64,000 nt of DNA from Herpetosiphon sp. NSE202 (GCF_042688385.1 NZ_JBHUPY010000007.1:2110-66109); one strand, 5' to 3'; numbered from the stretch's first letter, positions 28,339 to 53,770 are shown. Made by a program: numbers and translations. Notes: generated from the letters alone by a model not told the origin.

Positions 28339-28463
28339 ACCTTGGTGCGTTAGCCGCTCGTGGTACAATACGGCGCAACGTGGTTCAACGCTGCGCCACC
28401 CACTTTCCCTATTTCCCCAAAATTCTCGCCTACCCATTGCCACTATTCTGTGGAGGTTTCCCG

Positions 28464-31148: not shown

Positions 31149-31164
31149 ATCGCGGGATCAGTAG

Positions 31165-31745
31165 CAAGGTTCCCTCACCCCCCAACCCCCTCTCCCACTA
31201 GACGCGGGCGAGGGGGAGCACGCATTTTTACCGACTAATGGCGTAAGAACCATCGTTGACTCCCCCTCGCTCGGGCACGGGAGAGGGGTTGGGGTGAGGG
31301 GATCTTAACAACCGATCCCCAAATGTTCTATGTTCTATGTGTACTAGTTCATTAGGTTGGCAACCATGTCCCCTCACCCCCCAGCCCCCTCTCCCACGAA
31401 AACGCGGTCGAGGGGGAGCCGACCATGGTTCGCCAAGAAATTGCGTAAGAACCACGTGCTAAAGCCCTTCGCCTGCGCCACGGGAGAGGGGTTGGGGTGA
31501 GGGGATCTTAACAACCGATCCCCAAATGTTCTATGTTCTATGTTCTATGTGTACTAGTTCACTAGGTTGGCAACCATGTCCCCTCACCCCCCAACCCCCT
31601 CTCCCACGAAAACGCGGGCGAGGGGGAGCCGACCATGGTTCGCCAAGAAATTGCGTAAGAACCACGTGCTAAAGCCCCTCGCCCGCGCCACGGGAGAGGG
31701 GTTGGGGTGAGGGGATCTTAACAACCGATCCCAACCCCAAATATT
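31165..31745. repeat. About 2.7 tandem copies of a 210-bp composite unit (PE-family element plus 'gatccccaaatgttctatgttctatgtgtactagttcattaggttggcaaccatg')
   Basis: Copies are at about 31165-31366, 31367-31576 and 31577-31745 with over 90 percent identity. The array lies between the convergent cphA and rqcH genes. Confidence 0.85.
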
Positions 31746-33482
31746 CTATGTTCTTTTCTGCTCTTTCTTTGGCTCAACCCGCAAGGTACGTTCGGCGGTG
31801 TAACGCACCAAGCCTGGCGGGCCGCCTTTGATTTTGCGTACATGTTTGCGCAGCGAAATATCAACTTCAACCGCGCCATCGTTGCGCGCCGATGAATAGT
31901 AGGCTGCCAGTTGGGCTGCCTGTTCGAGCGTGCGTGGCGGCACGGTCGCCGCTTGCATACGAATGATCACATGGCCGCCAGTGCGTTCGCGGGCATGCAA
32001 CCAATAATCTTCTGGCTGACCAAGTTTGAAGGTCACTTCATCGTTTTGGTCGGCGCTACGGCCCACGAAAATTGTCCAGCCATCGGGCGAAATAACCCGC
32101 AATGGGCCACGGCCAACGCTCGAATTGGGCTTGTTCTTGGCTTTGCCAATGGTTTGGCGCAACCAGCCACCAGCAATCAACTCGCGCTCAAATTGCTCGA
32201 TTTCCGCAAAACTCTCGGCCAAACTTAGCAAATCGTTGGTTTGTTGCAAGTATTCTGCTTGGGCCTCGGTTTGCTCCAACAGCTGCGGCACATCTTCCAA
32301 CGCACCTTTGGCTTTGTCGTACTCGCGAAAACGGGCTTGAGCGTTCTCCACCGCAGACAATTTTGGGTCAAGCGTGATTACGCCTTGGTCAAGCAATAAT
32401 TCGCTTTGACCAGGCTTGATCGCGTAAATATAGCCAAAAATCATCTCGCCTTCCCAGCGCAATTGTTCAAGCTGTTCGACGCGCGCCAGTTGAGTGCGCA
32501 ATTGATCGGCCTTGGTTTTGGTGCGGCGTTGCGCTTCGGCCACCCGTTCGAGCAAGGCATCGCGGCGTTGCGCATGAGCCGTTACTTGATCAAGCTCGGC
32601 AAAGGCGGTCGCCAAAGCCTCGTTCATGCTTGGGTAGGCTTCGGTGTTTGCTTGGTGCTGCAAGGCAAAGGCGGCGATACCAATTGGCGTACCTTCGGCG
32701 TTGCGGGCTAAGGTTGGCTCAATCGTTGCGAGGCTGGTTAATTCGCGCAGCTGGTTGGCGATCTGCTCAAAATCAAGCGCTGGCGTAATTTCGACGCTGG
32801 TTGCACCAGTTGCGCGCCAAGCAATTTCGCGCCCAGTTTGCGGCGAAACCCCACTATATTCAGTTACCAAGGCTTTGGCCAAATCGCCGCCCAAAGCCGC
32901 AATCGCGGTGGCGGTTGCTATGCGTGGGTCGTTTTTGCCTTGGCTCGGTGGCCCTTCGTAGATACTGCGCGGCATAATTGGGCGCTGCGAACGTTGCGGG
33001 TTATAGTGGCGAATGCTTTCCAAAACCAAGCCATTATCATCAACCAAAATAATATTTGATGAATGGCCGATAATTTCTAGTACCAACTCACTATAACGCG
33101 GCGTAAGCATCACCTCATCGTCGTCATCGTCATCAGGCTCTAGTTCCTTGCGAGGAATTGGCATCTTGGCTATACTGAGCGAAATAACCCGTTCCAATGG
33201 CGCAGATTCGATCTTTGTGATTCGTCCGCCGCGAACATATTTGCGTAACAACAATAACAAAGGCGAATCGGCATTGGGGTCACGGGTTAGTTTGGTTGGC
33301 ACGGTATGCAGGCGGGCAAATTTGGCATTGGCCGAAAGCAACAGCTGGTGGCGCTGGCCATCGGCATAGACTTCAAAGCCCACACTATCGGGATTTGGCA
33401 AAACCACCTGTTGAATTTTGCCACCAACCAAAATCTGTAATTCAGCGACAATCGCTGCTACAACAAGCGCATCAATGTGCAT
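31746..33482 (-). CDS. rqcH: NFACT-family ribosome quality control protein (RqcH/FbpA-like)
   Basis: The ATG at 33482 has AAGGAG upstream. An N-terminal NFACT-N region is followed by coiled-coils and the C-terminal NFACT-R/DUF814 region (..GGHVIIR.., ..ISLRKHVRK..). Confidence 0.8.
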   Translation of the reverse strand: MHIDALVVAAIVAELQILVGGKIQQVVLPNPDSVGFEVYADGQRHQLLLSANAKFARLHTVPTKLTRDPNADSPLLLLLRKYVRGGRITKIESAPLERVISLSIAKMPIPRKELEPDDDDDDEVMLTPRYSELVLEIIGHSSNIILVDDNGLVLESIRHYNPQRSQRPIMPRSIYEGPPSQGKNDPRIATATAIAALGGDLAKALVTEYSGVSPQTGREIAWRATGATSVEITPALDFEQIANQLRELTSLATIEPTLARNAEGTPIGIAAFALQHQANTEAYPSMNEALATAFAELDQVTAHAQRRDALLERVAEAQRRTKTKADQLRTQLARVEQLEQLRWEGEMIFGYIYAIKPGQSELLLDQGVITLDPKLSAVENAQARFREYDKAKGALEDVPQLLEQTEAQAEYLQQTNDLLSLAESFAEIEQFERELIAGGWLRQTIGKAKNKPNSSVGRGPLRVISPDGWTIFVGRSADQNDEVTFKLGQPEDYWLHARERTGGHVIIRMQAATVPPRTLEQAAQLAAYYSSARNDGAVEVDISLRKHVRKIKGGPPGLVRYTAERTLRVEPKKEQKRT

Positions 33483-33565
33483 AGACGATTCTCCTTCATG
33501 GCTCAATCGTACTCAAGCATTGGCGGATCGTCAATAATTTAGCAACCCTTAGTTTAGGAGGCATT

Positions 33566-34198
33566 GTGTCACACCCAGAACTCAACCCGATTTTGCACAA
33601 CCAAGCTCCTGTGCCGCTGCTCGTCATTATTTCAGGCCCATCAGGGGTTGGCAAAGATACGGTGTTGATGCGGATGCGCGAATTTGGCATGCCCTTTCAT
33701 TTTGTGGTCACTACGACCAGCCGTGGCCAACGCCCAGGCGAAGTAGAGGGCTTTGATTATAATTTTATCTCCAAAGATGAATTTGAAACCATGATTGCCA
33801 ACAACGATTTGTTGGAGCATGCCGTGGTCTATGGCGAATACAAGGGCATTCCCAAATCGCAGGTGCGTGATGCGCTTGCCAGTGGCAAAGATGTAATTTT
33901 GCGGATCGACGTGCAGGGCGCTGCGACCATGCGCAAATTAGTGCCCGATGCAGTGTTGATCTTCATTGTGCCACCATCGAGTGCCGAATTGGCCAACCGC
34001 CTGCGCCTGCGCCGCACCGAATCGGCAGAAGGCTTAGAGCGGCGCATGGCCTTGGCCGAAGAAGAAATGGGCCGCGTCGATGAATTTGATTATGTCGTGA
34101 TGAACCCCGAATCACGGCCCGACGAAGCAGCAAGTATGATTCAAGCCATTATTCGGGCTGAAAAATCGCGCATTCGTCCGCGCCGAATTAAACTCTAA
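33566..34198 (+). CDS. gmk: Guanylate kinase
   Basis: LLVIISGPSGVGKDTV is the P-loop and TTSRGQRPGEVEGFDYNFISKDEF is the GMP-binding region. GTG start with AGGAGG upstream. Confidence 0.9.
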   Translation: MSHPELNPILHNQAPVPLLVIISGPSGVGKDTVLMRMREFGMPFHFVVTTTSRGQRPGEVEGFDYNFISKDEFETMIANNDLLEHAVVYGEYKGIPKSQVRDALASGKDVILRIDVQGAATMRKLVPDAVLIFIVPPSSAELANRLRLRRTESAEGLERRMALAEEEMGRVDEFDYVVMNPESRPDEAASMIQAIIRAEKSRIRPRRIKL

Positions 34199-34371
34199 AA
34201 CCTCGATTGGGCTTAATTGGCCAAACGTGGCTGGTTAAGCCCATTTCCTCAGCATCTCTTCATCAAAGTAGCACTTTCGGGCAAACCAAAAAACCTCTAT
34301 AATACTTATTAATCTATGCTCCACCGCAGGGTTGCATTGGAGTGTCTGTGTGGCTCCGAGGATTGAACAAC

Positions 34372-35217
34372 ATGACCACTGCATTGGTTACCGCCTCTAC
34401 ATCGAGCTTGCCAATGGAGCTTATTCAGCGCTATGGCATTGAATTAATTCCATTTACCATTCAGTTTGTCGATGGCAATCTGCGCGAAAGCGAAGATGTT
34501 TCACTCGATGAATTTTATCGCCGTTTAGTTCATGAAGATGTCATTCCGACAACTGCGCCTTCATCGGCAGGCCAGTTTATTAATTATTTTCGTCAACACC
34601 CAGCCGATGACATCATTGTGATTCATGTTGGGTCGATGCTGAGCCAAAGCTATGCCAACGCCATGCAAGCAGCTTCACGGGTTCAAGGCCGCATGATTTA
34701 TAACATCGATTCGCGCCAATTTGCGCTTGGCACCGGTTTATTGGTGCTCGAAGCCGCCGAAGCCATGGCCAACGGAGCTAGCGCCGCAGCGGTCGTTTCG
34801 CAAATCGAACATCAAATTCCGAATATTTTGACCGTGGCCTCACTCGAAACTGTGCGCTATTTGCGGCTGAGCGGTCGCTTGGGCCGCATCGGTGCAATGG
34901 CAGCTTCGCTCTTGGGTATCTACCCAATTTTGGGCCTCGACCGCAAAGGCCAAGCTGAAATGGTTGGCCGTGCTCGCTCACGCGCCGATTCGCTCACCAT
35001 GATGATTCAACAAGCAAAAGAGTTTGTGGGCAAAGCTAAAATTCGACGCATGGGCATTTTGCACACCAACGTGCAAGCAGAAGCAGAAGCCTTTGCCAAA
35101 CAGGTTGCCGAGCATTTCCCTGGCATTCCCTTGTTGATCTCCGATGCTGGCCCAGTTTTGGCTGTGCACGGCGGGCCGGGCGCATTGGGCATTTCAGTCT
35201 TGCGAGAAGAAGCCTAA
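34372..35217 (+). CDS. DegV-family fatty-acid-binding protein
   Basis: MTTALVTASTSSLPMELIQRYGIELIPF and the overall DegV layout. Confidence 0.8.
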   Translation: MTTALVTASTSSLPMELIQRYGIELIPFTIQFVDGNLRESEDVSLDEFYRRLVHEDVIPTTAPSSAGQFINYFRQHPADDIIVIHVGSMLSQSYANAMQAASRVQGRMIYNIDSRQFALGTGLLVLEAAEAMANGASAAAVVSQIEHQIPNILTVASLETVRYLRLSGRLGRIGAMAASLLGIYPILGLDRKGQAEMVGRARSRADSLTMMIQQAKEFVGKAKIRRMGILHTNVQAEAEAFAKQVAEHFPGIPLLISDAGPVLAVHGGPGALGISVLREEA

Positions 35218-35220
35218 ATT

Positions 35221-36105
35221 ATGCATTTGTTTCGGCGCGTGCCCAGCATTCACGATTTGGCGATGCGGCCACTGCTTGAGAGCGATCTCGCACCGCTCAT
35301 GGGTTTGCTTGAGCAAACTCCATGGGCTTCGCTTTCGATTCCTCACGATGAGTTTGGCCTAACCCTCAGCGATCAACTCAGCATTGTTTTGGAATACAAC
35401 GGCAAATTGTGGGGCTGCGTGCTGATGGGCTACGCAGTTGGTCCCATTGCTTGGATTCGCGCGCTGATCGTGCATCATTCGCTGCGCCCCGCCGATGCAG
35501 TAACGACCTTTTTGCAGGCCGCCGAAGGTTATGCCAAGGCCCGAGGTGTCGAGCGCTTGCTGCTGATGAGCGACGAACGCGATGCAAGCTGGCTCTTGCC
35601 GTGGGTCTTGCACGAAGGCTATCAGCAACAACTCGATGTCGTGGGCTATGAAAAACGGTCGATGCAGATTCCTGCTTGGGGCAATACTGGGGCGTGGATT
35701 CGCCCAGCAACGCATGCCGACGTGCCAATGATCGCCAAAATCGACGCTGCGGCCTTTGCCGCCGAATGGGTCAAAAGTAGCACAATTCTGGCTGGAGTTT
35801 TTCCAGTTGCGCCATTCTACATCGTGGCCGAACTTAATCAAACAATTGTGGGCTATGCCTTTGCAACCGTGCATCATGGCGGCATCATGGCCCATCTCGT
35901 GCGGATTGCGGTCGATCCGGCACTGCAAGGCCAAGGCATTGGGGTGCGGCTGTTGGCCGAATTGGTCGATTGGTGTAGTTTAAATGGCGTGCAGTTGCTT
36001 TCGCTCAATACCCAAAATACCAACCAACATGCCCAACGACTCTACGAGTGGTTTGGGTTTATGCGCAACGGCGAACGCCAAACTGTTTTAGTCAAAGATC
36101 TCTAA
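35221..36105 (+). CDS. GNAT-family N-acetyltransferase (two-lobed)
   Basis: The C-terminal lobe has VRIAVDPALQGQGIGVRLL...LYEWFGF, the acetyl-CoA-binding motif A. Confidence 0.7.
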   Translation: MHLFRRVPSIHDLAMRPLLESDLAPLMGLLEQTPWASLSIPHDEFGLTLSDQLSIVLEYNGKLWGCVLMGYAVGPIAWIRALIVHHSLRPADAVTTFLQAAEGYAKARGVERLLLMSDERDASWLLPWVLHEGYQQQLDVVGYEKRSMQIPAWGNTGAWIRPATHADVPMIAKIDAAAFAAEWVKSSTILAGVFPVAPFYIVAELNQTIVGYAFATVHHGGIMAHLVRIAVDPALQGQGIGVRLLAELVDWCSLNGVQLLSLNTQNTNQHAQRLYEWFGFMRNGERQTVLVKDL

Positions 36106-36135
36106 GCGTGGCTCTGTTTTCGGGAGGATTTTGAA

Positions 36136-37119
36136 ATGAAACATGTGCAAGATATAGCGCAGCGGCTGGCGGCCAACGTCGAAAAGGTGATCATCGGCAA
36201 ACGTGCTGCGGTGGATTTAACTCTGATTGCCTTGTTGTGTCGCGGCCATGTGCTGTTGGAAGATGTGCCTGGCGTGGGCAAAACCACCCTTGCCAAAGCA
36301 ATTGCCCGCAGCATTGGCTGTAGCTTCAAGCGCATTCAGTTCACCCCCGATCTCTTGCCAACCGATGTCAGCGGGGTTTCGATTTTCAATCAAAAATCGG
36401 GCGAATTTGAGTTTCGACCTGGGCCAATTATCGCCAACTTAGTGCTGGCCGATGAAATTAATCGCGCTACGCCCAAAACCCAATCGGCCTTGCTCGAAAG
36501 CATGGAAGAAGGTCAATTGACTGTCGACGGCATCACCCGCCCATTGCCCCAGCCCTTCATCGTGCTCGCCACCCAAAATCCAATCGAATACGAAGGTACC
36601 TTTCCCTTGCCCGAAGCCCAACTCGACCGCTTTTTGCTGCGAATTACCTTGGGCTATCCCGCCAAGGCCGATGAATTGGCGATCTTGGAGAGCCAACGCA
36701 AAGCCCACCCAATCGATGCTTTAGATCAAGTCGTTACAATTGAAGAGTTGCAACAGCTGCAAGCTGAAATTCGCGATGTCTATGTCGATGAGCAGATCAA
36801 AGAATATATTGTGGCAATTACCACCGCCACCCGTAATAATAGCGATGTCTATCTTGGCGCTAGCCCGCGTGGCTCGTTGGCGCTCTATCGCACTGCCCAA
36901 GCCTTAGCGGCCTTGCAAGGCCGCGATTATGTTATTCCCGATGATATTAAAGTCTTGGTCAAACCTGTCTTAGCGCACCGCATGATCATCAGCCCTGCAG
37001 CACGGATTCGCAACATTCATGCAGACGAATTGATTCACCAAATTGTGAGCCAAGTGCCCGTACCAGGCGCACGCGCTGGGCGACGATATGAGCGGCAGCA
37101 GCCAGCGGTTGCACAATAG
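36136..37119 (+). CDS. MoxR-family AAA+ ATPase
   Basis: [23 protein letters not shown] (Walker A), [10 protein letters not shown] (Walker B). Confidence 0.9.
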
Positions 37120-37128
37120 GGGCAGCAT

Positions 37129-38388
37129 ATGCGGGCATTAGGCATTCTCAGCTTGGCCGTCGTTCTATTTCTGACTGGGCTTTCGAGTAATATTCCCTTC
37201 TTTTATTACTTGACCTACACCCTGCTTGGGTTGTTGGTGATTGCCTATGCTTGGGCTTGGAGCAACCTCGAAGGCCTCGAGATTGAGCGCGAATCGAGCA
37301 CCACCCGCGCCCAAGTTGGCGAAACAGTGCGCGAACGCATCACCATTTACAATACCTGGCCATTGCCCAAGCTTTGGGTCGAAGTGCGCGATCACTCCGA
37401 TTTGCCGTCGCATGGCTCGGGCTTTGTGAGCTATATTCCAGGCCGAGAGAAACGACGTTGGATGGTGCGCACGCCCTGCACCTTGCGCGGCAAATGGCGC
37501 TTGGGGCCAGTTTCGGTACGCAGCGGCGATCCATTTGGTATCTTTCAACTGCACAAAATGGTCGATCTGACCCACGATCTCTTGGTCTATCCGGCAACCG
37601 TCGATTTGCCCAAATTCGAGTTACCAACTGCTGAGCTAATTGGCGGCCAAGATGTGCGTTCGCGCACGTTTCACGTTACGCCGAATGTTTCGACCGTGCG
37701 CCAATATGTGCCAGGCGATAGCTTCAACCGCATTCACTGGCGTTCAACCGCCCGTACTGGTGCGTTGATGGTCAAAGAGTTCGAGCTTGATCCCTCGGCA
37801 GATGTCTGGATCATCTTGGATATGGAAGAGCGTTTTCACCACGGCCAGCCCGATGCAGCGATTCCGGCGATTATCAAAAGCTTACAAGGCAAGATTGCAA
37901 TTCCCAATACCACCGAGGAATATAGCATTACCTTGGCAGCTTCGTTGGCCCGCCATTTGTTGCGGCTCAATCGCAGCGTCGGCTTATTGACCTACGGGGC
38001 ACAACGGGAAATTATTCTGCCTGAGCGCGAAGCTCGCCAGCTATATAAAATTTTAGAGCCATTGGCGATGCTGCATGCCACTAGCAACACCTCGTTAGCT
38101 GAATTATTGGCCGCTGAAAGCCAACGTTTTGGCCGTAATTCCTCGTTGTTGATCATCACGGCGGCGCTTGATGAGCGTTGGGTAGCGGCGGTACAACGCT
38201 TGGTCTATCGCGGTGCACGAGCTTCAATTATGTTTCTCGATGGCAAATCGTTTGGCGGCTGGCGCGACCCCGAGCCAACCTTTGCTCGCCTGGCCGAACT
38301 ACGGGTGCCAGTCTATCGCATTCATGCTGGCGATGGCTTAGATCGCGCCTTGGCCGAGCCAGCGATTCGCGCTATGGGGCGGAGTTAG
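37129..38388 (+). CDS. DUF58 (VWA-like) protein partnering MoxR
   Basis: VRQYVPGDSFNRIHWRSTARTGALMVKEFE is the DUF58 signature. It has N-terminal TM helices and lies immediately downstream of moxR. Confidence 0.85.
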   Translation: MRALGILSLAVVLFLTGLSSNIPFFYYLTYTLLGLLVIAYAWAWSNLEGLEIERESSTTRAQVGETVRERITIYNTWPLPKLWVEVRDHSDLPSHGSGFVSYIPGREKRRWMVRTPCTLRGKWRLGPVSVRSGDPFGIFQLHKMVDLTHDLLVYPATVDLPKFELPTAELIGGQDVRSRTFHVTPNVSTVRQYVPGDSFNRIHWRSTARTGALMVKEFELDPSADVWIILDMEERFHHGQPDAAIPAIIKSLQGKIAIPNTTEEYSITLAASLARHLLRLNRSVGLLTYGAQREIILPEREARQLYKILEPLAMLHATSNTSLAELLAAESQRFGRNSSLLIITAALDERWVAAVQRLVYRGARASIMFLDGKSFGGWRDPEPTFARLAELRVPVYRIHAGDGLDRALAEPAIRAMGRS

Positions 38389-38390
38389 CA

Positions 38391-39032
38391 ATGCCACACA
38401 ATCAACCAACTGTCGAATTACGCCCAGCCAACGCCAACGATTTGGCGATTTTGGGCGAATTGTTGCTCGATTTATATGATGCAGAATTGCCCGATTCGTT
38501 GCGTGGAGCCGATAGCCAACGCCAAGCCTTGTTGCGCTACACCTTGCATGCCAACAATTTTGCTGGCGTGCGCGGGCGCTATGTCGTGCGCAATCAAGCA
38601 GGCGAGATTGTCGGCATGGCAGGCATTCAATTCCCCAACGAGCCAGCCCCTGATCGAGTGCCACGCGGCACATTGAACATGGCGGTGCAATTGATTGGCC
38701 TGAAGCATACGCTGCATCTATTGAGCACCGTCGCGGCCTCGATGCTAATGCCACCACCAAAATTCAACCCCGACTATGCCTATATTCATGGGATTGTGGT
38801 GCGTGCCCAGCAGCGCGGCCAAGGCTATGGTGCGGCGATTATGCAGGCAGTTGAGCAGCAATTAGCGGCGCGCAAGGTTGCTGGCGCACAACTACAAGTG
38901 ATCGTTGATAACCAGCAAGCGGCCAAATTATACGAGCGCTTGGGCTATCGCACGGTCTATCGCTCACCAAAATGGCTCGATCGCGTGACGATTCCCAATA
39001 TTCTGATGCAAAAACCATTGACAACCGGCTAG
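38391..39032 (+). CDS. GNAT-family N-acetyltransferase
   Basis: GGAG sits 6 nt before the ATG at 38391. IHGIVVRAQQRGQGYGAAIM...LYERLGY. Confidence 0.75.
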   Translation: MPHNQPTVELRPANANDLAILGELLLDLYDAELPDSLRGADSQRQALLRYTLHANNFAGVRGRYVVRNQAGEIVGMAGIQFPNEPAPDRVPRGTLNMAVQLIGLKHTLHLLSTVAASMLMPPPKFNPDYAYIHGIVVRAQQRGQGYGAAIMQAVEQQLAARKVAGAQLQVIVDNQQAAKLYERLGYRTVYRSPKWLDRVTIPNILMQKPLTTG

Positions 39033-39062
39033 GCTAACCACATATGTTGAGGGAGGGAAATC

Positions 39063-39653
39063 ATGTACAAAATTTCAGCGGCGTTACCCGTTAAGCGCCA
39101 ACTACCACTATCAACCATAGGACTATGGATAGCGGCCCATCTGCCTGGCCTCTTTCTCATTGCTTGGCTCGCTCGGCTTGATGATGCAGCAATTCCTGAT
39201 ATTATGTTTATTCCATTAATGCTGATTGTATCTACTATCTTGATCCAAACTGGACAAGCAATGGTAATCAGCAAATTGACCAAAAAACGCCTATTTATTG
39301 CTTGGTGGCCGATTACGATCGTTTTATCGGTCGTGTTCCAACGCATGTTTGGCGCATCACTTTATTTTTTATGGCCATTTGCGACATTTCAAGCAACATT
39401 ATTTATAGCAATTGCCCAATTTATCATCGCAAAATACTATGGTTATACAATGCGTTTCTGGGTTGTGCTAAACCTTGGCGCATATGTTATGCATAAAGTG
39501 CTGCTCCATATTTTCGATTACTACAAGCATCTAGCAATATCAAACTATGCAGTTATGATTATCACAATTACAACCATGTTTATAACTAGCATAGGCTTAT
39601 TTTTTATCCAGCCAAACCACGAATCAAAATCAAGACTTAAAGGTTTGCTTTAA
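39063..39653 (+). CDS. Polytopic membrane protein, paralog A; the local sequence is AT-rich
   Basis: GAGGGAGGG RBS. Five or six TM helices. Motifs QTGQAMVISKLTKKR and C-terminal GLFFIQPNHES are shared with the downstream paralog. Confidence 0.6.
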   Translation: MYKISAALPVKRQLPLSTIGLWIAAHLPGLFLIAWLARLDDAAIPDIMFIPLMLIVSTILIQTGQAMVISKLTKKRLFIAWWPITIVLSVVFQRMFGASLYFLWPFATFQATLFIAIAQFIIAKYYGYTMRFWVVLNLGAYVMHKVLLHIFDYYKHLAISNYAVMIITITTMFITSIGLFFIQPNHESKSRLKGLL

Positions 39654-39718
39654 ACATACAACCAAAACAGAGTATATCCGCAAAACACAATCTAAATAAT
39701 TAAGCAAAGAGGTCGAGA

Positions 39719-40378
39719 ATGTATGAAGTTGCCCATGCCCGCTCACAACGACTGCGAATTCCAGTCGTCACATGGCTGTATTGGATTGGCGTGCATATTC
39801 CAGCGCTGCTTTTGAGTGTGTATAGTATGCTGTTTTTTGTGCAAGATCAGCCTGATGGCGGTGAAATTGTATATTTTGGATTATTTTTGCTTATGGAATT
39901 TGTTTGTATTGGAAGTATCAGCATTGGACAAGCTTGGATTTTGAAAAGAACAATTAATCCACAATTATTTTCATCATGGATTTCGAAAACAATGTTTACG
40001 GCCATGGGCTTTGGCATATTAAGTTTTATGCTGCAGCTTAATTCTATAATCGATAGAATGTATCAAACCCCTCGGACTATAGCTACAGTGCAACAGTTAT
40101 TACCTTCTCGATTAATCTTAATGACCCTGCTTGGTGGATTGATTGGTTTTGTTCAAGCACGAATTCTCCATAGCTATGGCTATCGTATGTGGCATTGGAT
40201 AGCAGTACAAGGGCTGAGTTATCTTTGTACAACGAGCATTATTGGCTGGTTGATGACCGATGTACGCTACATCTACTTAGCAGGAACAATTCCGATTGTT
40301 ATGGCTGGCGCTGGGATAATTAATAGTTTGGGGCTTTTTCTGATTCAGCCAATTCATAATCATGGGCAAAAACTATAA
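39719..40378 (+). CDS. Polytopic membrane protein, paralog B
   Basis: SIGQAWILKRT and C-terminal GLFLIQPIHNHGQ match paralog A. Six TM helices. Confidence 0.6.
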   Translation: MYEVAHARSQRLRIPVVTWLYWIGVHIPALLLSVYSMLFFVQDQPDGGEIVYFGLFLLMEFVCIGSISIGQAWILKRTINPQLFSSWISKTMFTAMGFGILSFMLQLNSIIDRMYQTPRTIATVQQLLPSRLILMTLLGGLIGFVQARILHSYGYRMWHWIAVQGLSYLCTTSIIGWLMTDVRYIYLAGTIPIVMAGAGIINSLGLFLIQPIHNHGQKL

Positions 40379-40405
40379 CCTAGCTGTAATAGTTCATTAC
40401 ACAGC

Positions 40406-40549
40406 CTGATCCCCTCACCCCAACCCCTCTCCCGTGGCGCGGGCGAGGGGCTTTAACTTCGTGGTTCTTGCGCAAAGCCTTGGTAAACACGGGTACTCCC
40501 CTCGCCCGCGTTCAGTGGGAGAGGGGCTGGGGGTGAGGGGAATCGATCA
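40406..40549. repeat. PE-family inverted-repeat element (canonical full copy)
   Basis: gatcccctcaccccaacccctctcccgtggcgcgggcgaggggctttaac...ctcgcccgcgttcagtgggagaggggctgggggtgagggg. Confidence 0.85.
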
Positions 40550-40575
40550 AGCGCTGATCCACGGTGGATTTTAAA

Positions 40576-41106
40576 TTAGGCCGACCAGCCCCAGCCAACC
40601 CCATCGGGCTTGGCAGCGGCACTGGGCATGGTGCGGGTCAAGCGCCAAACTTGACGGGTCGTTGGATCGGTAATTTGAAAAAGAGCTTGGGTTTCGGTTT
40701 GATCGATCAACAAAAATTCGAGGTTTAAATTTGAATGCGGATTATTGAGCCATTGCTCAATCTCTTGAATGTAGCGTTGAGGTTGCTGGGCAAAAAGCGC
40801 ATCGCCTTCGCCCAAGCCAAGGTTTGCCGCCTTGTGATCAAGCTCCAACATTATTGCGCTATTCAGCATATCGGCAATTTCGTGGGCACTGCTTTCCTCG
40901 CGATTGGTACGAATACACACATATTCGGCCAAATCGACCGGCTCGCCATGCTCTGCAACTGGGTGCAATGGAAACGTAGCCAAGGGGAAACCAAGCTGAT
41001 CGGGGTGGAGCGGTTCTGATACGGCGGTACAGACTTGCGAATCGGTCGCCGCAATCACCAACCATTGGTCGCTGGTTGGATGATGTAACAACATCCGGCG
41101 TTCCAT
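40576..41106 (-). CDS. Hypothetical protein (177 aa)
   Basis: GAGGAG sits 5 nt before the ATG at 41106. No recognisable motif. An AT-rich putative promoter region lies upstream (41107-41310). Confidence 0.5.
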   Translation of the reverse strand: MERRMLLHHPTSDQWLVIAATDSQVCTAVSEPLHPDQLGFPLATFPLHPVAEHGEPVDLAEYVCIRTNREESSAHEIADMLNSAIMLELDHKAANLGLGEGDALFAQQPQRYIQEIEQWLNNPHSNLNLEFLLIDQTETQALFQITDPTTRQVWRLTRTMPSAAAKPDGVGWGWSA

Positions 41107-41312
41107 AAAGACTCCTCTGCGCATCGTTGAGAAAGGAGAATCAACGTTATTTTGGATGTTTCTCGCAATGCGTGCTGTATTATAACCCAAGTTATAAAAA
41201 TAATTAATATATCGTTATGTATATAGCTCGCTACGGTAACATTCATCTGTGGCGTTAATACACCCAATTTGATATAGATTTGATCGATAAATAGCAAGAA
41301 CTGGCGCTTAAA

Positions 41313-41366: not shown

Positions 41367-42251
41367 TTATTGTGCTACGACATCGCGACGTAAGCTAACC
41401 ATTTCATGAGATAAACGAAAGCCAACTTTTTCGTATAAACCGCGCGCCGTTGGATTATCTTGGTCAACAACTAATTCAAGTTCCTGAATCTCAGGTGCAC
41501 TAAAAATCCATTCCAAACAATGCTGCATAATCTTGGTGGCAATTCCACGGCCACGGGCAATCGGCGCAACACCAACAAATTCAATCCCTGCTTCGGCAAA
41601 TTCTGGTTGGCGCTCAGTATGAATATAGCCCAACAATTGTTCACCGTCACGCATAATAAATACTTGACGATCCTGATTAATTCGTTCGAGAATTTGGCTG
41701 CCGCTATAGTAAGTTTGGGGGAATAATTGATCATGCAATTCGCAGAAGGCTGCGTGTAATTCTGCTGGCAACGCTTCAACATCACTCTCGGTTGCATGAT
41801 CAGTTAATTGTGAACGTTTGTAGGCCAGAATTGCGTGGGTATTGCGCTGGTAAAATTGCTGACGCGCAGCCCAATCGCGTACAAATTGATTTTGCAAATT
41901 GCAAAACATATCAATCATGGTGACATGGGGCTTAAGTTCGGGCAATAATTCAGCCAGCAAGCGATCTGCAAGCTCAAAGCGCTCAGCGCCCAAGGCAATT
42001 GGCCCCCATAAGAAAGCACGGCCAGTATCCGAAATTTGCTCAAGGCCCATCAAGCCTTGCAATTGTTCATCGGCGCTAGCCAAAGCAAATTGCTGCTCAA
42101 TTGGGGCTTCTAGCTCACGCCATGTTTGGGCAATTTGGTCGGCTTGCGCGCCAGCAAAACCCAAGTGGGTGCTTGGTTCGCCCTGAAATTGGGCCATAAA
42201 CGCGGCTGCTTGGTCAATCTGGGCTGGTTGCATACGGCTAATCGTTGGCAT
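41367..42251 (-). CDS. GNAT-family N-acetyltransferase with an N-terminal extension
   Basis: GVAPIARGRGIATKIMQHCLEWIF...LYEKVGFR. Confidence 0.75.
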   Translation of the reverse strand: MPTISRMQPAQIDQAAAFMAQFQGEPSTHLGFAGAQADQIAQTWRELEAPIEQQFALASADEQLQGLMGLEQISDTGRAFLWGPIALGAERFELADRLLAELLPELKPHVTMIDMFCNLQNQFVRDWAARQQFYQRNTHAILAYKRSQLTDHATESDVEALPAELHAAFCELHDQLFPQTYYSGSQILERINQDRQVFIMRDGEQLLGYIHTERQPEFAEAGIEFVGVAPIARGRGIATKIMQHCLEWIFSAPEIQELELVVDQDNPTARGLYEKVGFRLSHEMVSLRRDVVAQ

Positions 42252-42302
42252 CTATCTACCTCACATTCGGCTAATTTGGTACTACGCTATTTTGTTGGTA
42301 TC

Positions 42303-43373
42303 ATGGCCAAACGAGATCATTCGTTGGATGGATTGGAGCGTACAGCGGTGGGAGCATGGAATATCATCGGAAATGAGTGGGCGGTCGAATTATTGCGCTT
42401 GGCAATTGCCCGTCATTCGGCCAGCCATGCCTATTTGCTCACCGGTTTGCCCAATATTGGCAAAGCAACCTTGGCCTTGCACATCGCCCAAGCGCTCAAT
42501 TGTGAGCACAACAATGGCGATGTTTGCGGTGAATGTCGCGCCTGCAAACGCATCGCCAAAGGTAATTTTCCCGATGTGCGGATTGTTGGCTTGGCCGAAC
42601 AAGCAGCCCAACAAAAAGCCAGCGAAAGCGTCAAAACCCGCTTGGGCATTGACACCGTGCGCGAATGGCAGGCCGATATTGCCCTGCGACCCTACGAAGG
42701 GCGACGGCGGGTTTTTATTATGCACGATGCTGAAACCATGACCGAACAAGCAGCCAATGCCTTGCTCAAAACCCTTGAAGAACCACCACCGTTTGCCACC
42801 TTGATTTTGGTTGCCAATAGCGCTGGCGATTTGTTGCCAACAATCACCTCACGCTGCCATGTGCTGAAATTGCGCCCAGTGCCACGCCAACAAGTGACCC
42901 AAGCATTAATCGAACGTTGGCAGATTGCGCCCGCCGATGCGGCGATTGTGGCCGCTTGGAGCGCAGGCCGCATTGGCTGGGCCGCGACGGTTGCCCAATC
43001 GCCCGACCTACTGCAAGCCCGCTCCGAACAACTTGAGAGTTTGATCGAATTGCCAAGTAAGCCATTGGTCGAGCGCTTCAAATGGGCCGAAAGCTGGAGC
43101 AAAGCCAATCGCGAGCGCGATGAACTTTTTGCCATGCTCGAATTATGGCAAGTGTGGTGGCGCGACGTGCTGCTGACCGCCGCTGGCACGCAACAAGGCC
43201 TAATTAATATCGATCGGGTTGAGGATTTGCAAGACCTCGCTCGCCTGCCCTTGCCAGCAATTCATAAAACGCTCAAAGGCATCAACGATGCAGTGACCCA
43301 AATTCGCGAGAATGTCAGCCCTCAATTGGCGCTCGAAGGGGTTTTGCTCAATTTAGCTGGAGCGAAGGGGTAG
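42303..43373 (+). CDS. holB: DNA polymerase III delta-prime subunit
   Basis: HAYLLTGLPNIGKATLALHIAQALNCE...CGECRACKRI is the Cys4 zinc module, followed by the RFC-like box VFIMHDAETM. Confidence 0.8.
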   Translation: MAKRDHSLDGLERTAVGAWNIIGNEWAVELLRLAIARHSASHAYLLTGLPNIGKATLALHIAQALNCEHNNGDVCGECRACKRIAKGNFPDVRIVGLAEQAAQQKASESVKTRLGIDTVREWQADIALRPYEGRRRVFIMHDAETMTEQAANALLKTLEEPPPFATLILVANSAGDLLPTITSRCHVLKLRPVPRQQVTQALIERWQIAPADAAIVAAWSAGRIGWAATVAQSPDLLQARSEQLESLIELPSKPLVERFKWAESWSKANRERDELFAMLELWQVWWRDVLLTAAGTQQGLINIDRVEDLQDLARLPLPAIHKTLKGINDAVTQIRENVSPQLALEGVLLNLAGAKG

Positions 43374-43375
43374 CG

Positions 43376-43570
43376 TTTGATCCACGAAGGGAACGAAGAG
43401 CACGAAGGACGGAAACCGCGAAGGACGCGAAGGACGCGAAGATGGGCTTTTGGCTCTAGGATTCATCCTTCATCCTTCGCTTCTCTGCGCCTCTGCGTTA
43501 AAAATTTGTCCACGAATTGCCCGAAGCATGTTCCGATAGCCTACAGCCTTGGATTCTAGTTCCTGAACCT
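43376..43570. repeat. Word-mosaic element
   Basis: gatccacgaaggg, cgaag/cgcgaag runs, ttcatccttcatcc, ctctgcgcctctgcgttaaaaa, catagcctacagcc. Confidence 0.75.
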
Positions 43571-43591
43571 TCCAAGAGTAGGTTGTTAAGA

Positions 43592-43730
43592 TCCCCTCAC
43601 CCCAACCCCTCTCCCGTGGCGCGGGCGAGGGGCTTTCATACTGTGGTTTTGCAACGATTCTTCGTTAATACTACGGCTCCCCCTCGCCCGCGTTCAGTGG
43701 GCGAGGGGGTTGGGGGTGAGGGGGCAAACC
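43592..43730. repeat. PE-family element, followed by (gttctatg)n at 43745-43785
   Basis: Canonical left arm and right arm ctcgcccgcgttcagtgggcgagggggttgggggtgaggg. Confidence 0.8.
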
Positions 43731-43788
43731 GTCTTTAATGCCATGCCCCCTATGTTCTATGTTCTATGCTCTATGTTCTATGTTCTTA

Positions 43789-45900: not shown

Positions 45901-46011
45901 CAGCGACCCTCCAAGCTCGATAGCTCGTCTGTTGGTCGCATCATACTCTAGGCCTCGCTGCTTGTCCACTACAGCCGATAGCGCAGAGATTGCGACGACC
46001 CATGTCCGATC

Positions 46012-46224
46012 GTTCCCTCACCCCCCAGCCCCCTCTCCCACTGGACGCGGGCGAGGGGGAGCACAATGGGCAAGCCAAGGAATGGTGCAAGAACCACAGC
46101 GTTAAAGCCCCTCGCCCGTTGGACGGGAGTCATTCGAGATAGAAACCGCTATCTACAATTGGACGAACCACAGCGTTAAAGCCCCTCGCCCGTCCAACGG
46201 GCGAGGGGTTGGGGTGAGGGGATT
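46012..46224. repeat. PE-family element with a duplicated internal arm
   Basis: ccctcaccccccagccccctctcccactggacgcgggcgaggggg ... gttaaagcccctcgcccg (x2) ... gggcgaggggttggggtgagggg. Confidence 0.8.
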
Positions 46225-46458
46225 TTCAAATCTTACCCTTGGAAGTTTCTCTTACCTCGATTTCACTCAACGCTGAAGAAAAATTGGCGTGAGGGGAACT
46301 TATTTCAATCATTGACGTTATTCCTGCATAGGCATATGCGATTTTATTGATATGCCTTCGATTTACTTAGGTTGGGGGGTGCAATGAGGGAGGAATTGGG
46401 TTGATCATGGCCAACACCAGGCCCAGATTCTTGCAGCAGTATTCGGGACATACTGCCT

Positions 46459-48475: not shown

Positions 48476-48674
48476 TAAGCATTTAACAAAAAACTTGCGT
48501 ATTTTGCACGAAGCTATGTTATAATGGCCCAAAGGTGCCGTTAGGAGGCACTACCACTGTGAAGAACCTCGTCGCTTGATGCACGTATTATCGTTCGGAT
48601 GTCCGCTGTACTCCCGATCATTCAAGCATGCACTGACGACCCCAACAGTAAGAACCACGACCTGTGGAGTAATA

Positions 48675-50927
48675 ATGGAACGTTTACATAAGTTTTTGGC
48701 GCGGGCCGGCGTAGATTCACGTCGGGCTTGCGAAGATTTGATGTTGGCTGGACGCGTATCGGTTAATGGGCGCGTTCAACGCGAATTAGGAACCCAGATC
48801 GACCCCGATAAAGATGACATTCGAGTTGATGGCGAACGAATTACCCCGCCAACCGAGCTTCATTACGTCTTATTGAACAAGCCAAGCAGCGTCATGACCA
48901 CGCTCAGTGACCCTGAAGGCCGCCAAACAGTCGCCGATTTGGTTAAATCACACAATCGTTTGTTTCCCGTAGGTCGCCTCGATTACGATAGCGAAGGGCT
49001 ATTGTTGATGACCGATGATGGCGATCTGACCTTTCGTTTGACCCACCCATCGTTTGAAGTCGAAAAAGAATATCAGGCCTTGTTAAATCAGACTCCATCA
49101 GTCGAGCAGTTGCGCGAGTGGCGCAATGGGGTTGAGCTTGACGATGGCAAAACCGCACCCGCTTGGATCGAAATGTTGAATGAAACACCCGATGGGACAT
49201 GGGTTCGGGTGGTTATTCACGAAGGCCGGAACCGCCAAATTCGCCGCGTGGCCGAAGCCCTTGGCCTCGAAGTCCGCCGCTTGATTCGCTTGCGCGAAGG
49301 CCCGCTCAGTTTAGGCGAATTAAAACCAGGTGAATGGCGTGCATTAACGCCAACCGAAATCGACCGCTTGCGCATGCACGGCAAGCAAAGCAAAGCTTGG
49401 ACTCCTGTCCGCCCACAAGAGAACGCCGAGGGTGGCAAACAGCGCCGCCAAGTGCGCCGCATTGATCGGTCTGGACAGTTGGTAGAACGTCGGGCTGATG
49501 TTGAACCGCGCTTACAACGAGCGCCTCACTTTACTTCACAGGAAAATACAATGTCATTTGAAGATTTCTCAATCGAAGAAGAACGCGCTAACGCCGATCG
49601 CCCAAGCCGTCGCCCAGAACCTCGCCGCGAAGGTGGATTTAGCGACCGTGGCCCCCGCCGTGATGGTGGCAGCCCCAGCGACCGTGGCCCCCGCCGTGAT
49701 TTTGGTGAGCGTGGCCCCCGCCGCGAAGGTGGATTTGGTGAGCGTGGCCCTCGCCGCGAAGGTGGCGATTTCGGTGACCGTGGCCCACGCCGCGAAGGTG
49801 GATTTAGCGAACGCGGCCCGCGTCGTGAAGGCGGTTTTGGCGAGCGCGGCCCACGTCGTGAAGGTGGCGGTTTTGGCGAACGTGGTCCACGCCGCGAAGG
49901 TGGCGATTTCGGTGACCGTGGCCCCCGCCGCGAAGGTGGCGGTTTTGGCGAACGTGGTCCACGCCGCGAAGGCGGCTTTGGCGAACGCGGTCCTCGCCGT
50001 GAAGGCGGCGATTTTGGCGAACGCGGCCTGCGCCGTGAAGGTGGATTTAGTGACCGTGGCCCTCGTCGCGAAGGTGGCGATTTCGGCGAACGCGGTCCTC
50101 GTCGCGATTTTGGTGACCGTGGCCCGCGCCGTGAAGGCGGCTTTGGCGAACGCGGCCCGCGCCGCGAAGGTGGCGATTTCGGTGACCGTGGCCCGCGCCG
50201 TGAAGGCGGCTTTGGCGAACGCGGTCCTCGTCGTGAAGGCGGCGGTTTTGGCGAACGCGGTCCTCGTCGTGAAGGCGGCGGTTTTGGCGAACGCGGTCCT
50301 CGTCGTGAAGGCGGCTTTGGCAAACGCGGCCCGCGCCGTGAAGGTGGCGGCTTTGGTGACCGTGGCCCGCGCCGTGAAGGTGGCGGCTTTGGTGACCGTG
50401 GCCCGCGCCGTGAAGGCGGCGGTTTTGGCGAACGCGGCCCGCGCCGTGAAGGCGGCGGCTTTGGTGACCGTGGCCCACGTCGCGATGCAAGTGGCTTCGA
50501 TCGCACCAATCGGCGCGAAGAATTTTTCGATGATCGACCCCGTGGCGAGCGCGGCTTAGCCCTTGATCGGGCGCATCGTGGCGATGATCGGCCTAAAAAT
50601 ACCTTTGGTGGTGGCCGACGCTCAAATAATCAAGGCTCGTTTGAACGCCGTGGCTTTGACAATCGTGGCCGCGATGATCGCCGTGGCTTTGATAACCGTG
50701 GCCGTGACGACCGCCGTGGCTTTGATGATCGCTCAGCTCCACGCCGCGATCAAGCTCCACGCCGTGATCAAGCCCCACGCGAAAATATCGCTGATCGTGG
50801 GCCAATTACTGCGCGGAATAACCCAGCACCTACGCCAGCGCCAAGCACTGAACAATCGGCTCAACCAGCACGTCGCATGCGCGTCGTTCGGCGTTTGAAA
50901 AAGGCAGGCGGTGATGAACAAGCTTAA
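48675..50927 (+). CDS. rluB: RluB-like pseudouridine synthase (S4 plus RsuA catalytic domain) with a repetitive Arg/Gly-rich C-terminal tail of about 470 aa
   Basis: GGAG sits 5 nt before the ATG at 48675. The S4 domain begins [23 protein letters not shown]. The catalytic region has [21 protein letters not shown] and the conserved Asp. After about residue 280 there are roughly 35 copies of (G)[12 protein letters not shown]. Confidence 0.85.
49600..50500 (+). repeat. Intragenic tandem repeat of 39/42 nt (cgtggcccccgccgcgaaggtggatttggtgag...) encoding ([12 protein letters not shown])n
   Basis: All three frames and the antisense are open across this region (spurious ORFs 49498..50559 and 49526..50509), which is diagnostic of short-period in-frame repeats. 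Confidence 0.85.
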
Positions 50928-51171
50928 ACAGGCCTTTCTCCAATTAGCAGTTGAACGCGATCGCACGCGGCGGCAAGCGCAACGCTACGCCGCTGAATCG
51001 CAACGTTGGCTTGAACGAATTGCGCTCGCAAAACGCTATGATGAGCCAGAATTGGCCCGTCAAGCTCGCGAACGCGCATTGCAAACCGCCCAAGCCGAAA
51101 TTCAACTGCGAACTGAATTAGCACGCCAAGACGTGCTCTTCGATCAATTGGCAGCGAGTCTCCAAGCTTAA
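50914..51171 (+). CDS. Small coiled-coil protein with a PspA/IM30-like motif
   Basis: [26 protein letters not shown] resembles the PspA central helix (W..KAE.AL.KG.EDLAR.AL). Its start overlaps the rluB stop. A strong terminator lies downstream. Confidence 0.45.
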
Positions 51172-51186
51172 TTCATCATTATTCCA

Positions 51187-51227
51187 AAGCACCAAACACT
51201 GCTTGAAGTTCAAGCAGTGTTTGGCAT
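51187..51227 (+). terminator. Rho-independent terminator
   Basis: caaacactgcttgaa-g-ttcaagcagtgtttg is a perfect 15-bp stem followed by cattta. Confidence 0.55.
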
Positions 51228-51325
51228 TTAACAAACTATGCTAAAATTCAGGCAGCATTCAGCATCCTTAGAGGAAGGAGCAACCTATCCGACGCATATC
51301 TTGGTCTTCAGCTTATTGGTGGCCA

Positions 51326-52840: not shown

Positions 52841-52854
52841 TACAAGGAAATTGC

Positions 52855-53139
52855 ATGCAACCGTCTGATCAGCAGCCACGTTCGCTCAATCGTGCCAACT
52901 TAAGCCCCGAAGAGCGCAAATTGCGCCGTTCGATCGCTTTGGCAATGCTTTTTTCGCCAACCATGTGTGTCTTGCCATTATTGGCTTTTACCGCAGGTCA
53001 AAGTAAGTATGGCGTGGTGATTTGGGCCGTCTGGTTGCTGATCACAATTGCTTTAGTGGCAGTTATTTGGCGGGCTGCAAGCGGGCTGCGCAAAATCGCC
53101 GAACAACGGCTACACAACGAATCAACATCCAATAACTAA
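52855..53139 (+). CDS. Small membrane protein (94 aa, two TM helices)
   Basis: AAGGA lies before the ATG at 52855. A terminator hairpin follows. Confidence 0.4.
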   Translation: MQPSDQQPRSLNRANLSPEERKLRRSIALAMLFSPTMCVLPLLAFTAGQSKYGVVIWAVWLLITIALVAVIWRAASGLRKIAEQRLHNESTSNN

Positions 53140-53146
53140 ACCAAAA

Positions 53147-53207
53147 CTGCATCTGCCTTGCTTGATTTCAACGAATAGAGGGCGATGCAGTTTTCTTTTT
53201 AGAATTG
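53147..53207 (+). terminator. Hairpin terminator
   Basis: aaaactgcatc ...loop... gatgcagtttt followed by cttttt. Confidence 0.45.
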
Positions 53208-53215
53208 GGTGGCTT

Positions 53216-53770
53216 ATGCTAGGACAATCGGTCGAGCGCAGTTTGTTGGTTATTGATGAAACTGATCAGCAGCTGGATTTACTGCAACGCTATCAGAACC
53301 GTTCAATGTTGTTAATGCTGATGCGCCATCTTGGCTGTGGCCTCTGCCGCCAACAGCTCTATCGCTTGCGCGACTATCAACAGCGCTTTGCAAATGCCGA
53401 TTGCGAAATTGCAATCATTACGATGGGCGATGCAGCCATGGCCAAGGGCTTTCGTCAGCTCAACCAGCTGCCATTTGCCGTCTATTCCGACCCCAAGCAA
53501 CAGGTCTACGAAGCCTTTGAAATTGGCCAAGGTTCGCTCTGGACGGTCGCAGGGCCACATGTTTTAGCCCGCCAAATGCTGCTAGCCTTCAAAGGCATTC
53601 CTTCATCGGTCAACCTTGCTGCCGAATCAATTCGCCGCCTTGGCGGAATCGTGTTGCTCAATCCGCAAGCAGAAATTGCCTTTCACCATGTTGCCAACCC
53701 AATTCATCGCTACCCGCCTTGGGAAGACATTTTGCACCTACTGGAACAGCCTCAACAACGAGCTGCTTAA
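53216..53770 (+). CDS. Thioredoxin-fold peroxiredoxin-like protein (AhpC/TSA_2-like), paralog 1
   Basis: MLLMLMRHLGCGLCRQQL has a CxxC motif. The downstream gene is a paralog (HHVANPIHRYPPWEDIL versus HHVANPIYRYPEWSSVL). Confidence 0.65.
   Translation: MLGQSVERSLLVIDETDQQLDLLQRYQNRSMLLMLMRHLGCGLCRQQLYRLRDYQQRFANADCEIAIITMGDAAMAKGFRQLNQLPFAVYSDPKQQVYEAFEIGQGSLWTVAGPHVLARQMLLAFKGIPSSVNLAAESIRRLGGIVLLNPQAEIAFHHVANPIHRYPPWEDILHLLEQPQQRAA

Follow-up and report, generated by a model that had tools for sequence, protein, structure and literature searches.

The PIT element of Hoyne et al. 2000, a potential intrastrand triplex motif, was given the name TMECO by Holder et al. 2015 (PMC4666352) and overlaps BoxC of E. 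coli. Its three blocks are a C-rich one, the G-rich complement of that block, and a further G-rich block in mirror arrangement to the first. In the commonest E. coli type a mismatch of CCCTCGCCC opposite GGGAGAGGG is accompanied by the third block GGGTGAGGG (PMC4666352, Table 1). The strict form of the motif was reported from proteobacteria only, with 3610 copies counted in 262 of their genomes; other G/C-rich triplex motifs were reported from cyanobacteria, and inverted TMECO pairs occur in E. coli (PMC4666352). As a single strand the motif adopts a stable triplex in vitro, but the double-stranded form gave no triplex signal and a DMS footprint in vivo revealed no protection. The same study assigned TMECO no function, found loci bearing it to be genetically more variable than control loci, and cited earlier work in which PIT motifs had neither promoter nor terminator activity in E. 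coli. Among palindromic repeats of the REP class, the Chloroflexi listed with GTAG REPs do not include Herpetosiphon, and our search of the literature on Herpetosiphon repeats returned no report.

Here we describe a repeat family in a stretch of 64,000 nucleotides from Herpetosiphon sp. NSE202, called the window in the following. On balance we lean towards a dispersed, non-autonomous palindromic repeat of the REP/BIME-REPIN-like kind that is tolerated at gene 3' ends. Within the window GGGGTGAGGG occurs 31 times when up to one mismatch is allowed (2.2 expected) and CGGGCGAGGGG 33 times (1.1 expected); no shuffle equalled either count. A family profile built from six copies was used to scan the 64-kb window. 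This provided 15 non-overlapping matches across 10 intergenic regions, with a match at every position at which the initial annotation had placed a copy. The canonical unit is ~135 nt long and consists of two inverted arms with a ~45-nt spacer between them and the third blocks directed outward. The sizes of about 130-210 bp proposed originally hold at their upper end for compound or tandem copies, while the unit itself measures ~100-140 nt.

The focal copy is a full-length doublet (40408-40543, + strand) between the convergent genes 39719-40378 (+) and 40576-41190 (-); an exact-protein look-up of the 39719-40378 product returned no record. Its left arm has the layout CCCTCACCCC-AA-CCCCTCTCCC-GTGGCG-CGGGCGAGGGG and its right arm the layout CCCCTCGCCCG-CGTTCAGT-GGGAGAGGGG-CT-GGGGGTGAGGG, separated by a spacer of 46 nt (CTTTAAC..GTGGTTCT..). 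Conserved islands in the spacer are CTTTAA, GTGGTTCT and CAATT. Since this central part is asymmetric, the copies have an orientation, in correction of the earlier description. The reverse complementarity between the two arms is exact, and either arm is internally palindromic, just as had been described. The 10-bp palindrome within an arm contains a single mismatch, which is T opposite C on the left and G opposite A on the right. Once the two arms pair with each other in the long inter-arm hairpin, this mismatch becomes a perfect pair.

Beside full copies the family comprises short-spacer variants, solo or partial arms, a degenerate copy, an arm duplication and a tandem triplet. A solo arm (3907-3948, -; profile positions 92-136) lies 10 nt past the stop of the SpoU methylase gene 2821-3897, and a degenerate full copy with a decayed left arm (6924-7039, +) lies 16 nt past the stop of gene 5958-6908. 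The partial arm at 8357-8416 (+) begins at the stop codon of gene 7096-8364 and carries the linker CTTACAAGGGTAGGTAATAA in place of the third block; the full-length doublet 8437-8576 (+) is the top match to the profile. The convergent spacer 14856-15519 holds the right half of a copy (15149-15225, -) and a nearly full copy (15248-15360, -; profile positions 1-114). An ORF of 118 aa (15080-15436) that spans both of them gave no match in Pfam; it seems to be a spurious product of the repeats and was treated as such in the intergenic statistics.

Two short-spacer variants follow, one at 26194-26290 (+) with a ~16-nt spacer and the outer inverted repeat GTTCAT..GGTTAACCAC / GGTTGCCAA..ATGTAC, the other at 27204-27309 (+). 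Three tandem doublets (31169-31304, 31368-31507 and 31578-31717, all -), each a profile match, are located between cphA (28380-31148, +) and NFACT/rqcH (31746-33506, -), two gene calls that Pfam upheld. The 200-nt units 2 and 3 of this triplet are 98% identical, which points to local tandem duplication. A further full doublet (43590-43724, +) occupies a convergent spacer downstream of holB (42126-43373). In the divergent spacer 45970-46458 a copy without the first 21 profile positions (46012-46129, -) is the sole one of the window in a promoter-type region. The neighbouring profile match at 46159-46223 (-) is an arm duplication that corresponds to the left half of this copy. Beyond 46223 the window contains no copies. 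At gathering thresholds Rfam gave no match in the whole window, and a permissive Rfam search around the focal copy returned only sub-threshold, miRNA-precursor-like hairpin matches. A tRNA-derived, SINE-like repeat was ruled out, as a tRNA/tmRNA scan of the window found none.

In block order and mismatch type, the arms are a known motif, the three-block potential intrastrand triplex of the PIT/TMECO/BoxC type. A TMECO pattern with relaxed loops (CCCTCNCCC..GGGNGAGGG..GGGNGAGGG) matched 17 arms in the window and was absent from all 50 shuffles, and the arms share the 'mm' mismatch of the E. coli types A mm and B mm. The strict published pattern (loops N3-6 and N3) matched twice in the E. coli hrpB-mrcB spacer but nowhere in the window, because the loops of the Herpetosiphon arms are longer (7-10 and 4-6 nt). 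In a BLAST search of E. coli genomes the element matched nothing; it is the pattern, and no similarity that could be aligned, which relates it to BoxC. The arm sequence had been called distinctive, a description that we withdraw for a published motif that is present across phyla. What is particular to this lineage is, on the matches obtained, the amplified outward doublet with its own ~45-nt spacer; the arm itself is known and pan-bacterial.

The predicted folding of the element was calculated with Watson-Crick pairing only. On either strand the RNA of the focal copy forms a single long hairpin with a stem of ~45 bp, at -96 kcal/mol (z -7.3 and -8.4). As single-stranded DNA the doublet reaches -49 kcal/mol (z -8.3), compared with ~-11 kcal/mol for each arm alone. 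Applying RNAalifold to 37 copies provided 29 predicted pairs, none with a compensatory change, and no consensus structure for the spacer. The conservation of secondary structure between copies that the initial annotation had asked for is thus found in so far as the hairpin is kept, but it is kept because the sequence is conserved (0 of 29 pairs compensatory). No U-tract follows the hairpin, and a terminator scan detected no terminator-like site at any element end; it reported a weak 5-bp hairpin with a T-run at 40552-40566, outside the focal element. Together with the inactivity of the motif as a terminator in E. coli (Holder et al., citing earlier work), the lack of a U-tract leaves the terminator role that had been suggested unsupported.

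Across copies the six 10-nt blocks are 95-99% identical, and loops and spacer 67-79%. Since the copies were found by pattern and profile, this conservation of the blocks is in part due to ascertainment. The contrast between blocks and loops also appears in a pair of copies defined as orthologous by synteny (27204-27309 and H. gulosus L076 8768-8871), in which the six blocks are nearly identical and loops and spacer have diverged. The variable parts are ~65% identical, equally within and between genomes, and only 16 of 37 copies have their nearest neighbour in their own genome. The family is old and vertically persistent.

The position of the copies with respect to genes was evaluated for the window together with 57 Herpetosiphon loci, which were picked for carrying a copy and in which gene calls are longest-ORF approximations. 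In this set the element occupies 27/45 convergent, 42/193 tandem and 4/56 divergent spacers (convergent versus divergent, Fisher p=1e-8). Of 41 tandem cases, 30 place it closer to the upstream stop (p=0.004), and the distance is often no more than 0-30 nt. Its orientation relative to transcription is unbiased (13 versus 20). Apart from one match that overlaps a long ORF in locus L037, all copies in the window and the Herpetosiphon loci are intergenic. The family is hence extragenic and enriched at gene 3' ends, and the lack of such enrichment, by which the initial annotation would have been refuted, is not seen. The statement that it marks most operon boundaries was too strong: the window has 23 intergenic regions that measure 100 nt or more, and a copy is carried by 10 of them (4/5 convergent, 5/15 tandem and 1/3 divergent).

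Such positions could also reflect selection by the host. The element would then act as RNA, either as a bidirectional terminator or insulator or as a stabiliser of mRNA 3' ends at operon ends, like REP in E. coli. The enrichment in convergent spacers and the closeness to stop codons argue for this, as do the high stability of the hairpin on either strand, the independence of orientation, which suits a symmetric hairpin, and the conserved blocks with their drifting loops. Block conservation, 3'-end bias and stop-codon proximity could equally be compatible with a host function. Against it stand the missing U-tract and the empty terminator scan at the elements, the 0 of 29 pairs with compensatory change and the lack of promoter or terminator activity of the motif in E. 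coli (PMC4666352, citing earlier work). Furthermore, one copy lies in a divergent promoter region, and orthologous spacers of close relatives have no copy or a different number of copies. We consider a host-selected RNA element unlikely.

The turnover of copies was followed at orthologous loci that were retrieved via cphA homologues. The cphA product of the window is 96% identical to the proteins of H. aurantiacus, H. gulosus and a related MAG. The spacer after cphA contains three copies in the window, one in H. gulosus and none in H. aurantiacus DSM 785 or the MAG. In DSM 785 it is filled by 250 nt of other repeat modules, and in the MAG it is a clean 90-nt empty site. Over the 22.7 kb covered, DSM 785 (CP000875) appears poor in copies. 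A hairpin CCCCACCG..CGGTGGGG holds the H. gulosus copy in its loop; this copy is bounded by an outer inverted repeat TTACAAGGGTAGG..CCTACCCTTGTAA, which is flanked by a 9-bp direct repeat CTGATCTCG. The focal copy adjoins the orthologue of the same downstream gene and is inserted ~15 nt off in the hairpin CCCCACCG..CGGTGGGG. This offset within a shared hairpin indicates that the two copies are independent insertions. H. giganteus and H. llansteffanensis have unequal numbers of copies in orthologous spacers, and between orthologous copies one arm has decayed. Copies have thus been gained, lost, tandemly duplicated and degraded between close relatives, and their turnover is rapid.

The ends of synteny blocks inside the window, as compared with relatives, all fall into repeat-rich intergenic regions. 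Four of these regions carry the element (27144-27453, 31149-31745, 40379-40575 and 43374-43788), and the block common to the window, H. gulosus and the MAG stops at the copy 43590-43724. Copies persist mainly downstream of genes and occupy the ends of synteny blocks. In comparison with H. gulosus and the MAG (L076/L077), a 9.4-kb block from rqcH to 39719-40378 intervenes between cphA and 40576-41190. This block (31149-40575) has element copies on both sides, at 31169-31717 and 40408-40543. The PEPCK gene, which follows holB in the relatives, is found here at the start of the window (1-1567).

The analogy to REP/BIME drawn at the outset is apt, as the palindromic units occur singly, as inverted doublets and in tandem clusters, and the family is extragenic and enriched at 3' ends. 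Correia-type repeats, to which it had also been likened, are marked by a TA duplication and an IHF site. Both are absent here, and we drop this likeness. A phmmer search with E. coli RayT, a single distant query, detected no homologue in the window, the 57 Herpetosiphon loci and the orthologous loci (~0.6 Mb of Herpetosiphon DNA, the equivalent of ~10% of a single genome), and the same query found none in viral loci of ~1 Mb. When the Herpetosiphon loci (~0.6 Mb) were compared all against all for multi-copy ORFs or insertion sequences, only orthologues were returned, and the viral loci showed no multi-copy ORF either. The extra 1.4 kb beside the triple array of L068 encodes a 475-aa ORF without RayT match, which by eye resembles a membrane protein. 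The GTAG/CGTC tag of RAYT-type REPs is absent from the arm consensus; GTAG is found only in an optional linker CAAGGGTAGGTT, ~12 nt from the arm. The failure to find a mobilising enzyme in ~0.6 Mb of Herpetosiphon and ~1 Mb of viral DNA, as well as the missing tag, argue against the REPIN-like reading.

A different mode of spread would be that of a classical MITE, an internally deleted insertion sequence whose DDE transposase cuts in a staggered way and leaves target-site duplications. For 41 full copies flanking direct repeats were not in excess over controls with mismatched flanks, tandem and heptamer contexts aside. This speaks against a DDE-type MITE and is consistent with REP-like behaviour. 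Two copies are exceptions. The H. gulosus copy has its 9-bp repeat CTGATCTCG around TTACAAGGGTAGG..CCTACCCTTGTAA and is matched by a clean empty site of the MAG; this case would suit a DDE-type MITE and keeps that explanation alive. The L017 copy has a 7-bp repeat around its outer inverted repeat. The terminal inverted arms and a size below 300 nt would likewise suit a MITE. Contrary to it, the Herpetosiphon loci searched contain no transposase or multi-copy ORF, and the outer inverted repeat is present in a minority of copies, where it often abuts other arms, more in the manner of a BIME linker than of a terminus. We regard an origin as a classical MITE as quite improbable. A linker or terminal module CTT(A/T)CAAGGGTAGGTT(G)TTAA and its complement bracket some copies (8417-8436 in the window; L076 12762-12950; L017 3790-3990; also L038, L043, L061 and L067). 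It is the outer inverted repeat of the only clean insertion, the one with the 9-bp direct repeat, and may be a separate element or a BIME-type linker.

The elements contain 21 of the 24 G-quadruplex motifs in the window. Intergenic runs of G-rich heptamers (GGGGTCA / GGGGCTA / GGGTTCA) at 15387-15410, 19895-19930 and 26113-26150 are part of the few such motifs outside the elements. The concentration inside the elements is in favour of an action at the DNA level, with the six CCCTCNCCC sites bound by a putative protein, or with the element as programmed non-B DNA (triplex, cruciform, G-quadruplex). Proposed roles of such an element would be in nucleoid organisation, supercoiling, replication or recombination. 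Also in its favour, the constrained unit is the three-block motif, which retains its third block in solo arms too, where a partner for pairing is missing, and the motif is conserved across phyla. On the other side, copies are dispensable at orthologous sites, and we know of no protein that binds the motif. The stable triplex of the single strand in vitro agrees with this proposal, but the missing triplex signal of the duplex and the missing DMS protection in vivo (PMC4666352) do not. A DNA-level function of this kind appears to us quite improbable.

We return to the REP/BIME-REPIN-like repeat as the reading we prefer. The unit is the pan-bacterial triplex motif, with two direct and one inverted CCCTCNCCC that give a 10-bp hairpin and a mirror-repeat third block. 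Two such arms in inverted arrangement, third blocks outward around the lineage-specific ~45-nt spacer, would fold into one long hairpin. Spreading may proceed as single-stranded hairpin DNA by means of a putative trans-acting enzyme of RAYT/HUH-like type or, alternatively, by copying linked to replication or recombination. Copies would survive where their insertion spares promoters, and any of them would be dispensable at its particular locus. As side effects, the transcribed hairpin would shield the 3' ends of upstream mRNAs, while as DNA the element would readily adopt cruciform, triplex or G-quadruplex structures and thereby promote rearrangement.

To follow the family beyond the window, we searched a collection of species-representative genomes with a pattern specific to the composite (CGGGCGAGGGGCTTT N5-7 TGGTTCT). 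It matched at least 57 stretches, and the matches listed all belong to Herpetosiphon giganteus, H. llansteffanensis or a Chloroflexia MAG. One of the H. llansteffanensis loci (L053) is 90% identical in nucleotide sequence to the window over 7.5 kb (49640-57215). An origin from a cyanobacterium, at which cphA and STRR-like heptamers had hinted, is rejected on the strength of the composite matches, the L053 identity and the 96% identity of the cphA product to Herpetosiphon proteins. Viral contigs contained no match to the composite pattern, and a BLAST search of plasmids gave no match covering at least 80% of the element query. The arm is distributed more widely. Exact left-arm patterns matched 13 and 104 stretches of viral contigs (median GC 62%), and BLAST located the arm at 82-91% identity in replicons of Cupriavidus, Azospirillum, Xanthomonas and Pseudanabaena. 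Solo arms dominate in ~1 Mb of viral loci, where 133 of them compare with 7 inward and 3 outward doublets. Outward doublets also occur in Cupriavidus and a few viral contigs, with spacers unrelated to that of Herpetosiphon.

Several of these sites have features of their own. In the viral contig L001 arms at 5103-5141 and 6867-6905 lie between ORFs that by eye resemble terminase and portal genes; given this placement between phage-like genes, phages could move the motif between hosts. The viral contig L008 has several arms in 2720-2843 and 6746-7325, including one inward doublet, and the triplex-motif arm is also present in L084-L184, which together with L001 and L008 make up more than 100 high-GC viral contigs. 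On plasmid AZO_p3 of Azospirillum lipoferum 4B (L081, 509040-509581) a solo arm is 91% identical to the Herpetosiphon left arm, extends this identity through the GGGGCTTT continuation and has the end of a transposase gene of IS110-like type (ISAli16) at a distance of ~250 nt. Palindromic repeats are known targets of IS110-family elements. On plasmid pPg_02 of Pseudanabaena galeata (L083, 153884-154426) arms and related CCCCTCTCCC hairpins are found inside a 4.8-kb CDS annotated as 'DUF559 domain-containing protein', which looks like an annotation drawn through repeat DNA.

It is conceivable, though we would call it doubtful, that the three-block motif serves as the recognition substrate of a putative trans-acting enzyme or binding protein common to several phyla, with phages as carriers. 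If this were true, Herpetosiphon, with the outward doublet at ~1 copy per 4-6 kb, would offer a natural setting for finding such a factor, and the factor could explain the BoxC/PIT elements of E. coli.

The intergenic regions of the window contain further repeats. A second, mosaic repeat system is found at 1729-2079, 2865-3113, 23113-23496, 24357-24529, 43367-43513 and 56182-56503. It is built from 9-mer runs (CGCGAAGGA / CACGAAGGG), a block CTCTGCGCCTCTGCGTTAAAA, runs of GGCTAT / AGCCAT and STRR-like tandem arrays of heptamers (ATGTTCT, TTCATCC). In relatives these modules are reordered, e.g. in L072 12686-12935 and L077 15584-15909. Many element copies are enclosed by another inverted repeat, TGTACTAGTTCAT..GGTTGGCAACC (15120-15147, 26160-26190, 26292-26331, 27180-27203, 27311-27350, 31340-31367, 31550-31577 and 40380-40405). 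As this repeat is itself flanked by inverted heptamer arrays, whole intergenic regions are nested palindromes. Repeats also occur within genes. In ORF 48576-50927 (783 aa) ~18 in-frame tandem repeats with a period of 33/36 nt (49623-50528) indicate a repetitive protein of 11-12-residue units; over this repeat region the L053 orthologue is only 81% identical. In ORF 17341-19644 (- strand, 767 aa) a 9-nt periodicity (GCGCTCGCT-like) at 18977-19084 indicates a tripeptide-repeat region.

With these results a repeat family of a predatory Chloroflexota bacterium is tied to the PIT/TMECO/BoxC triplex motif, and the Herpetosiphon doublets lend this motif a REPIN-like architecture. Gain, loss, independent insertion and the coincidence with synteny breakpoints support the published link with genome instability. 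Their density and the polymorphism between species make Herpetosiphon a practical organism for seeking the copier or binder of the motif. Nearly every G-quadruplex predicted in the window is due to these elements. Among the expected practical effects are spurious ORFs, as at 15080-15436, and hindered assembly from short reads.

Compared with intrinsic terminators, the element shares a GC-rich hairpin close downstream of stop codons, whereas its stem of ~45 bp exceeds their 5-15 bp and is not followed by a U-tract. With MITEs such as Correia/NEMIS of Neisseria and Nezha of cyanobacteria it has in common a small size, an intergenic location, terminal inverted repeats, a hairpin when transcribed and presence/absence polymorphism. 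It differs from them in having no constant target-site duplication, no sequence relation and, in the loci searched, no parent insertion sequence. Its termini are a motif common to phyla, whereas those of MITEs are the ends of a transposase-bearing element.

The resemblance to REP and REPIN sequences (Bertels & Rainey 2011, PMC3116915; Di Nocera et al. 2013, PMC3733652) extends further. It includes a ~40-nt imperfect palindromic unit, spaced inverted doublets that give a long hairpin in which the mismatch within the unit becomes a perfect pair, and solo units, tandem clusters and mosaic linkers. Both are extragenic with a 3'-end bias, lack a target duplication, and are old and vertically persistent. 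In contrast to REP/REPIN-RAYT systems, the Herpetosiphon element has no GTAG/CGTC at the foot of the hairpin and no RAYT gene in the ~0.6 Mb of Herpetosiphon DNA searched. A third mirror block, which REPs do not have, is part of its unit.

With PIT/TMECO the arms share the block order CCCTCNCCC, loop, GGGNGAGGG, loop, GGGNGAGGG and the mismatch type that is commonest in E. coli K-12 (CCCTCGCCC versus GGGAGAGGG, third block GGGTGAGGG). Both are multi-copy, intergenic, found also in inverted pairs and linked to variable or rearranged loci. The loops comprise 7-10 and 4-6 nt in Herpetosiphon and 3-6 and 3 nt in TMECO, and the Herpetosiphon stems of 10-11 nt are a further difference. The third blocks point outward around a conserved spacer of ~45 nt, but inward around one of ~17 nt in the hrpB-mrcB pair of E. 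coli. Finally, the host belongs to the Chloroflexota, as opposed to the proteobacteria from which TMECO was reported, and the density is far higher, with 15 matches in the 64 kb of the Herpetosiphon window compared with 23 in the whole E. coli K-12 genome.
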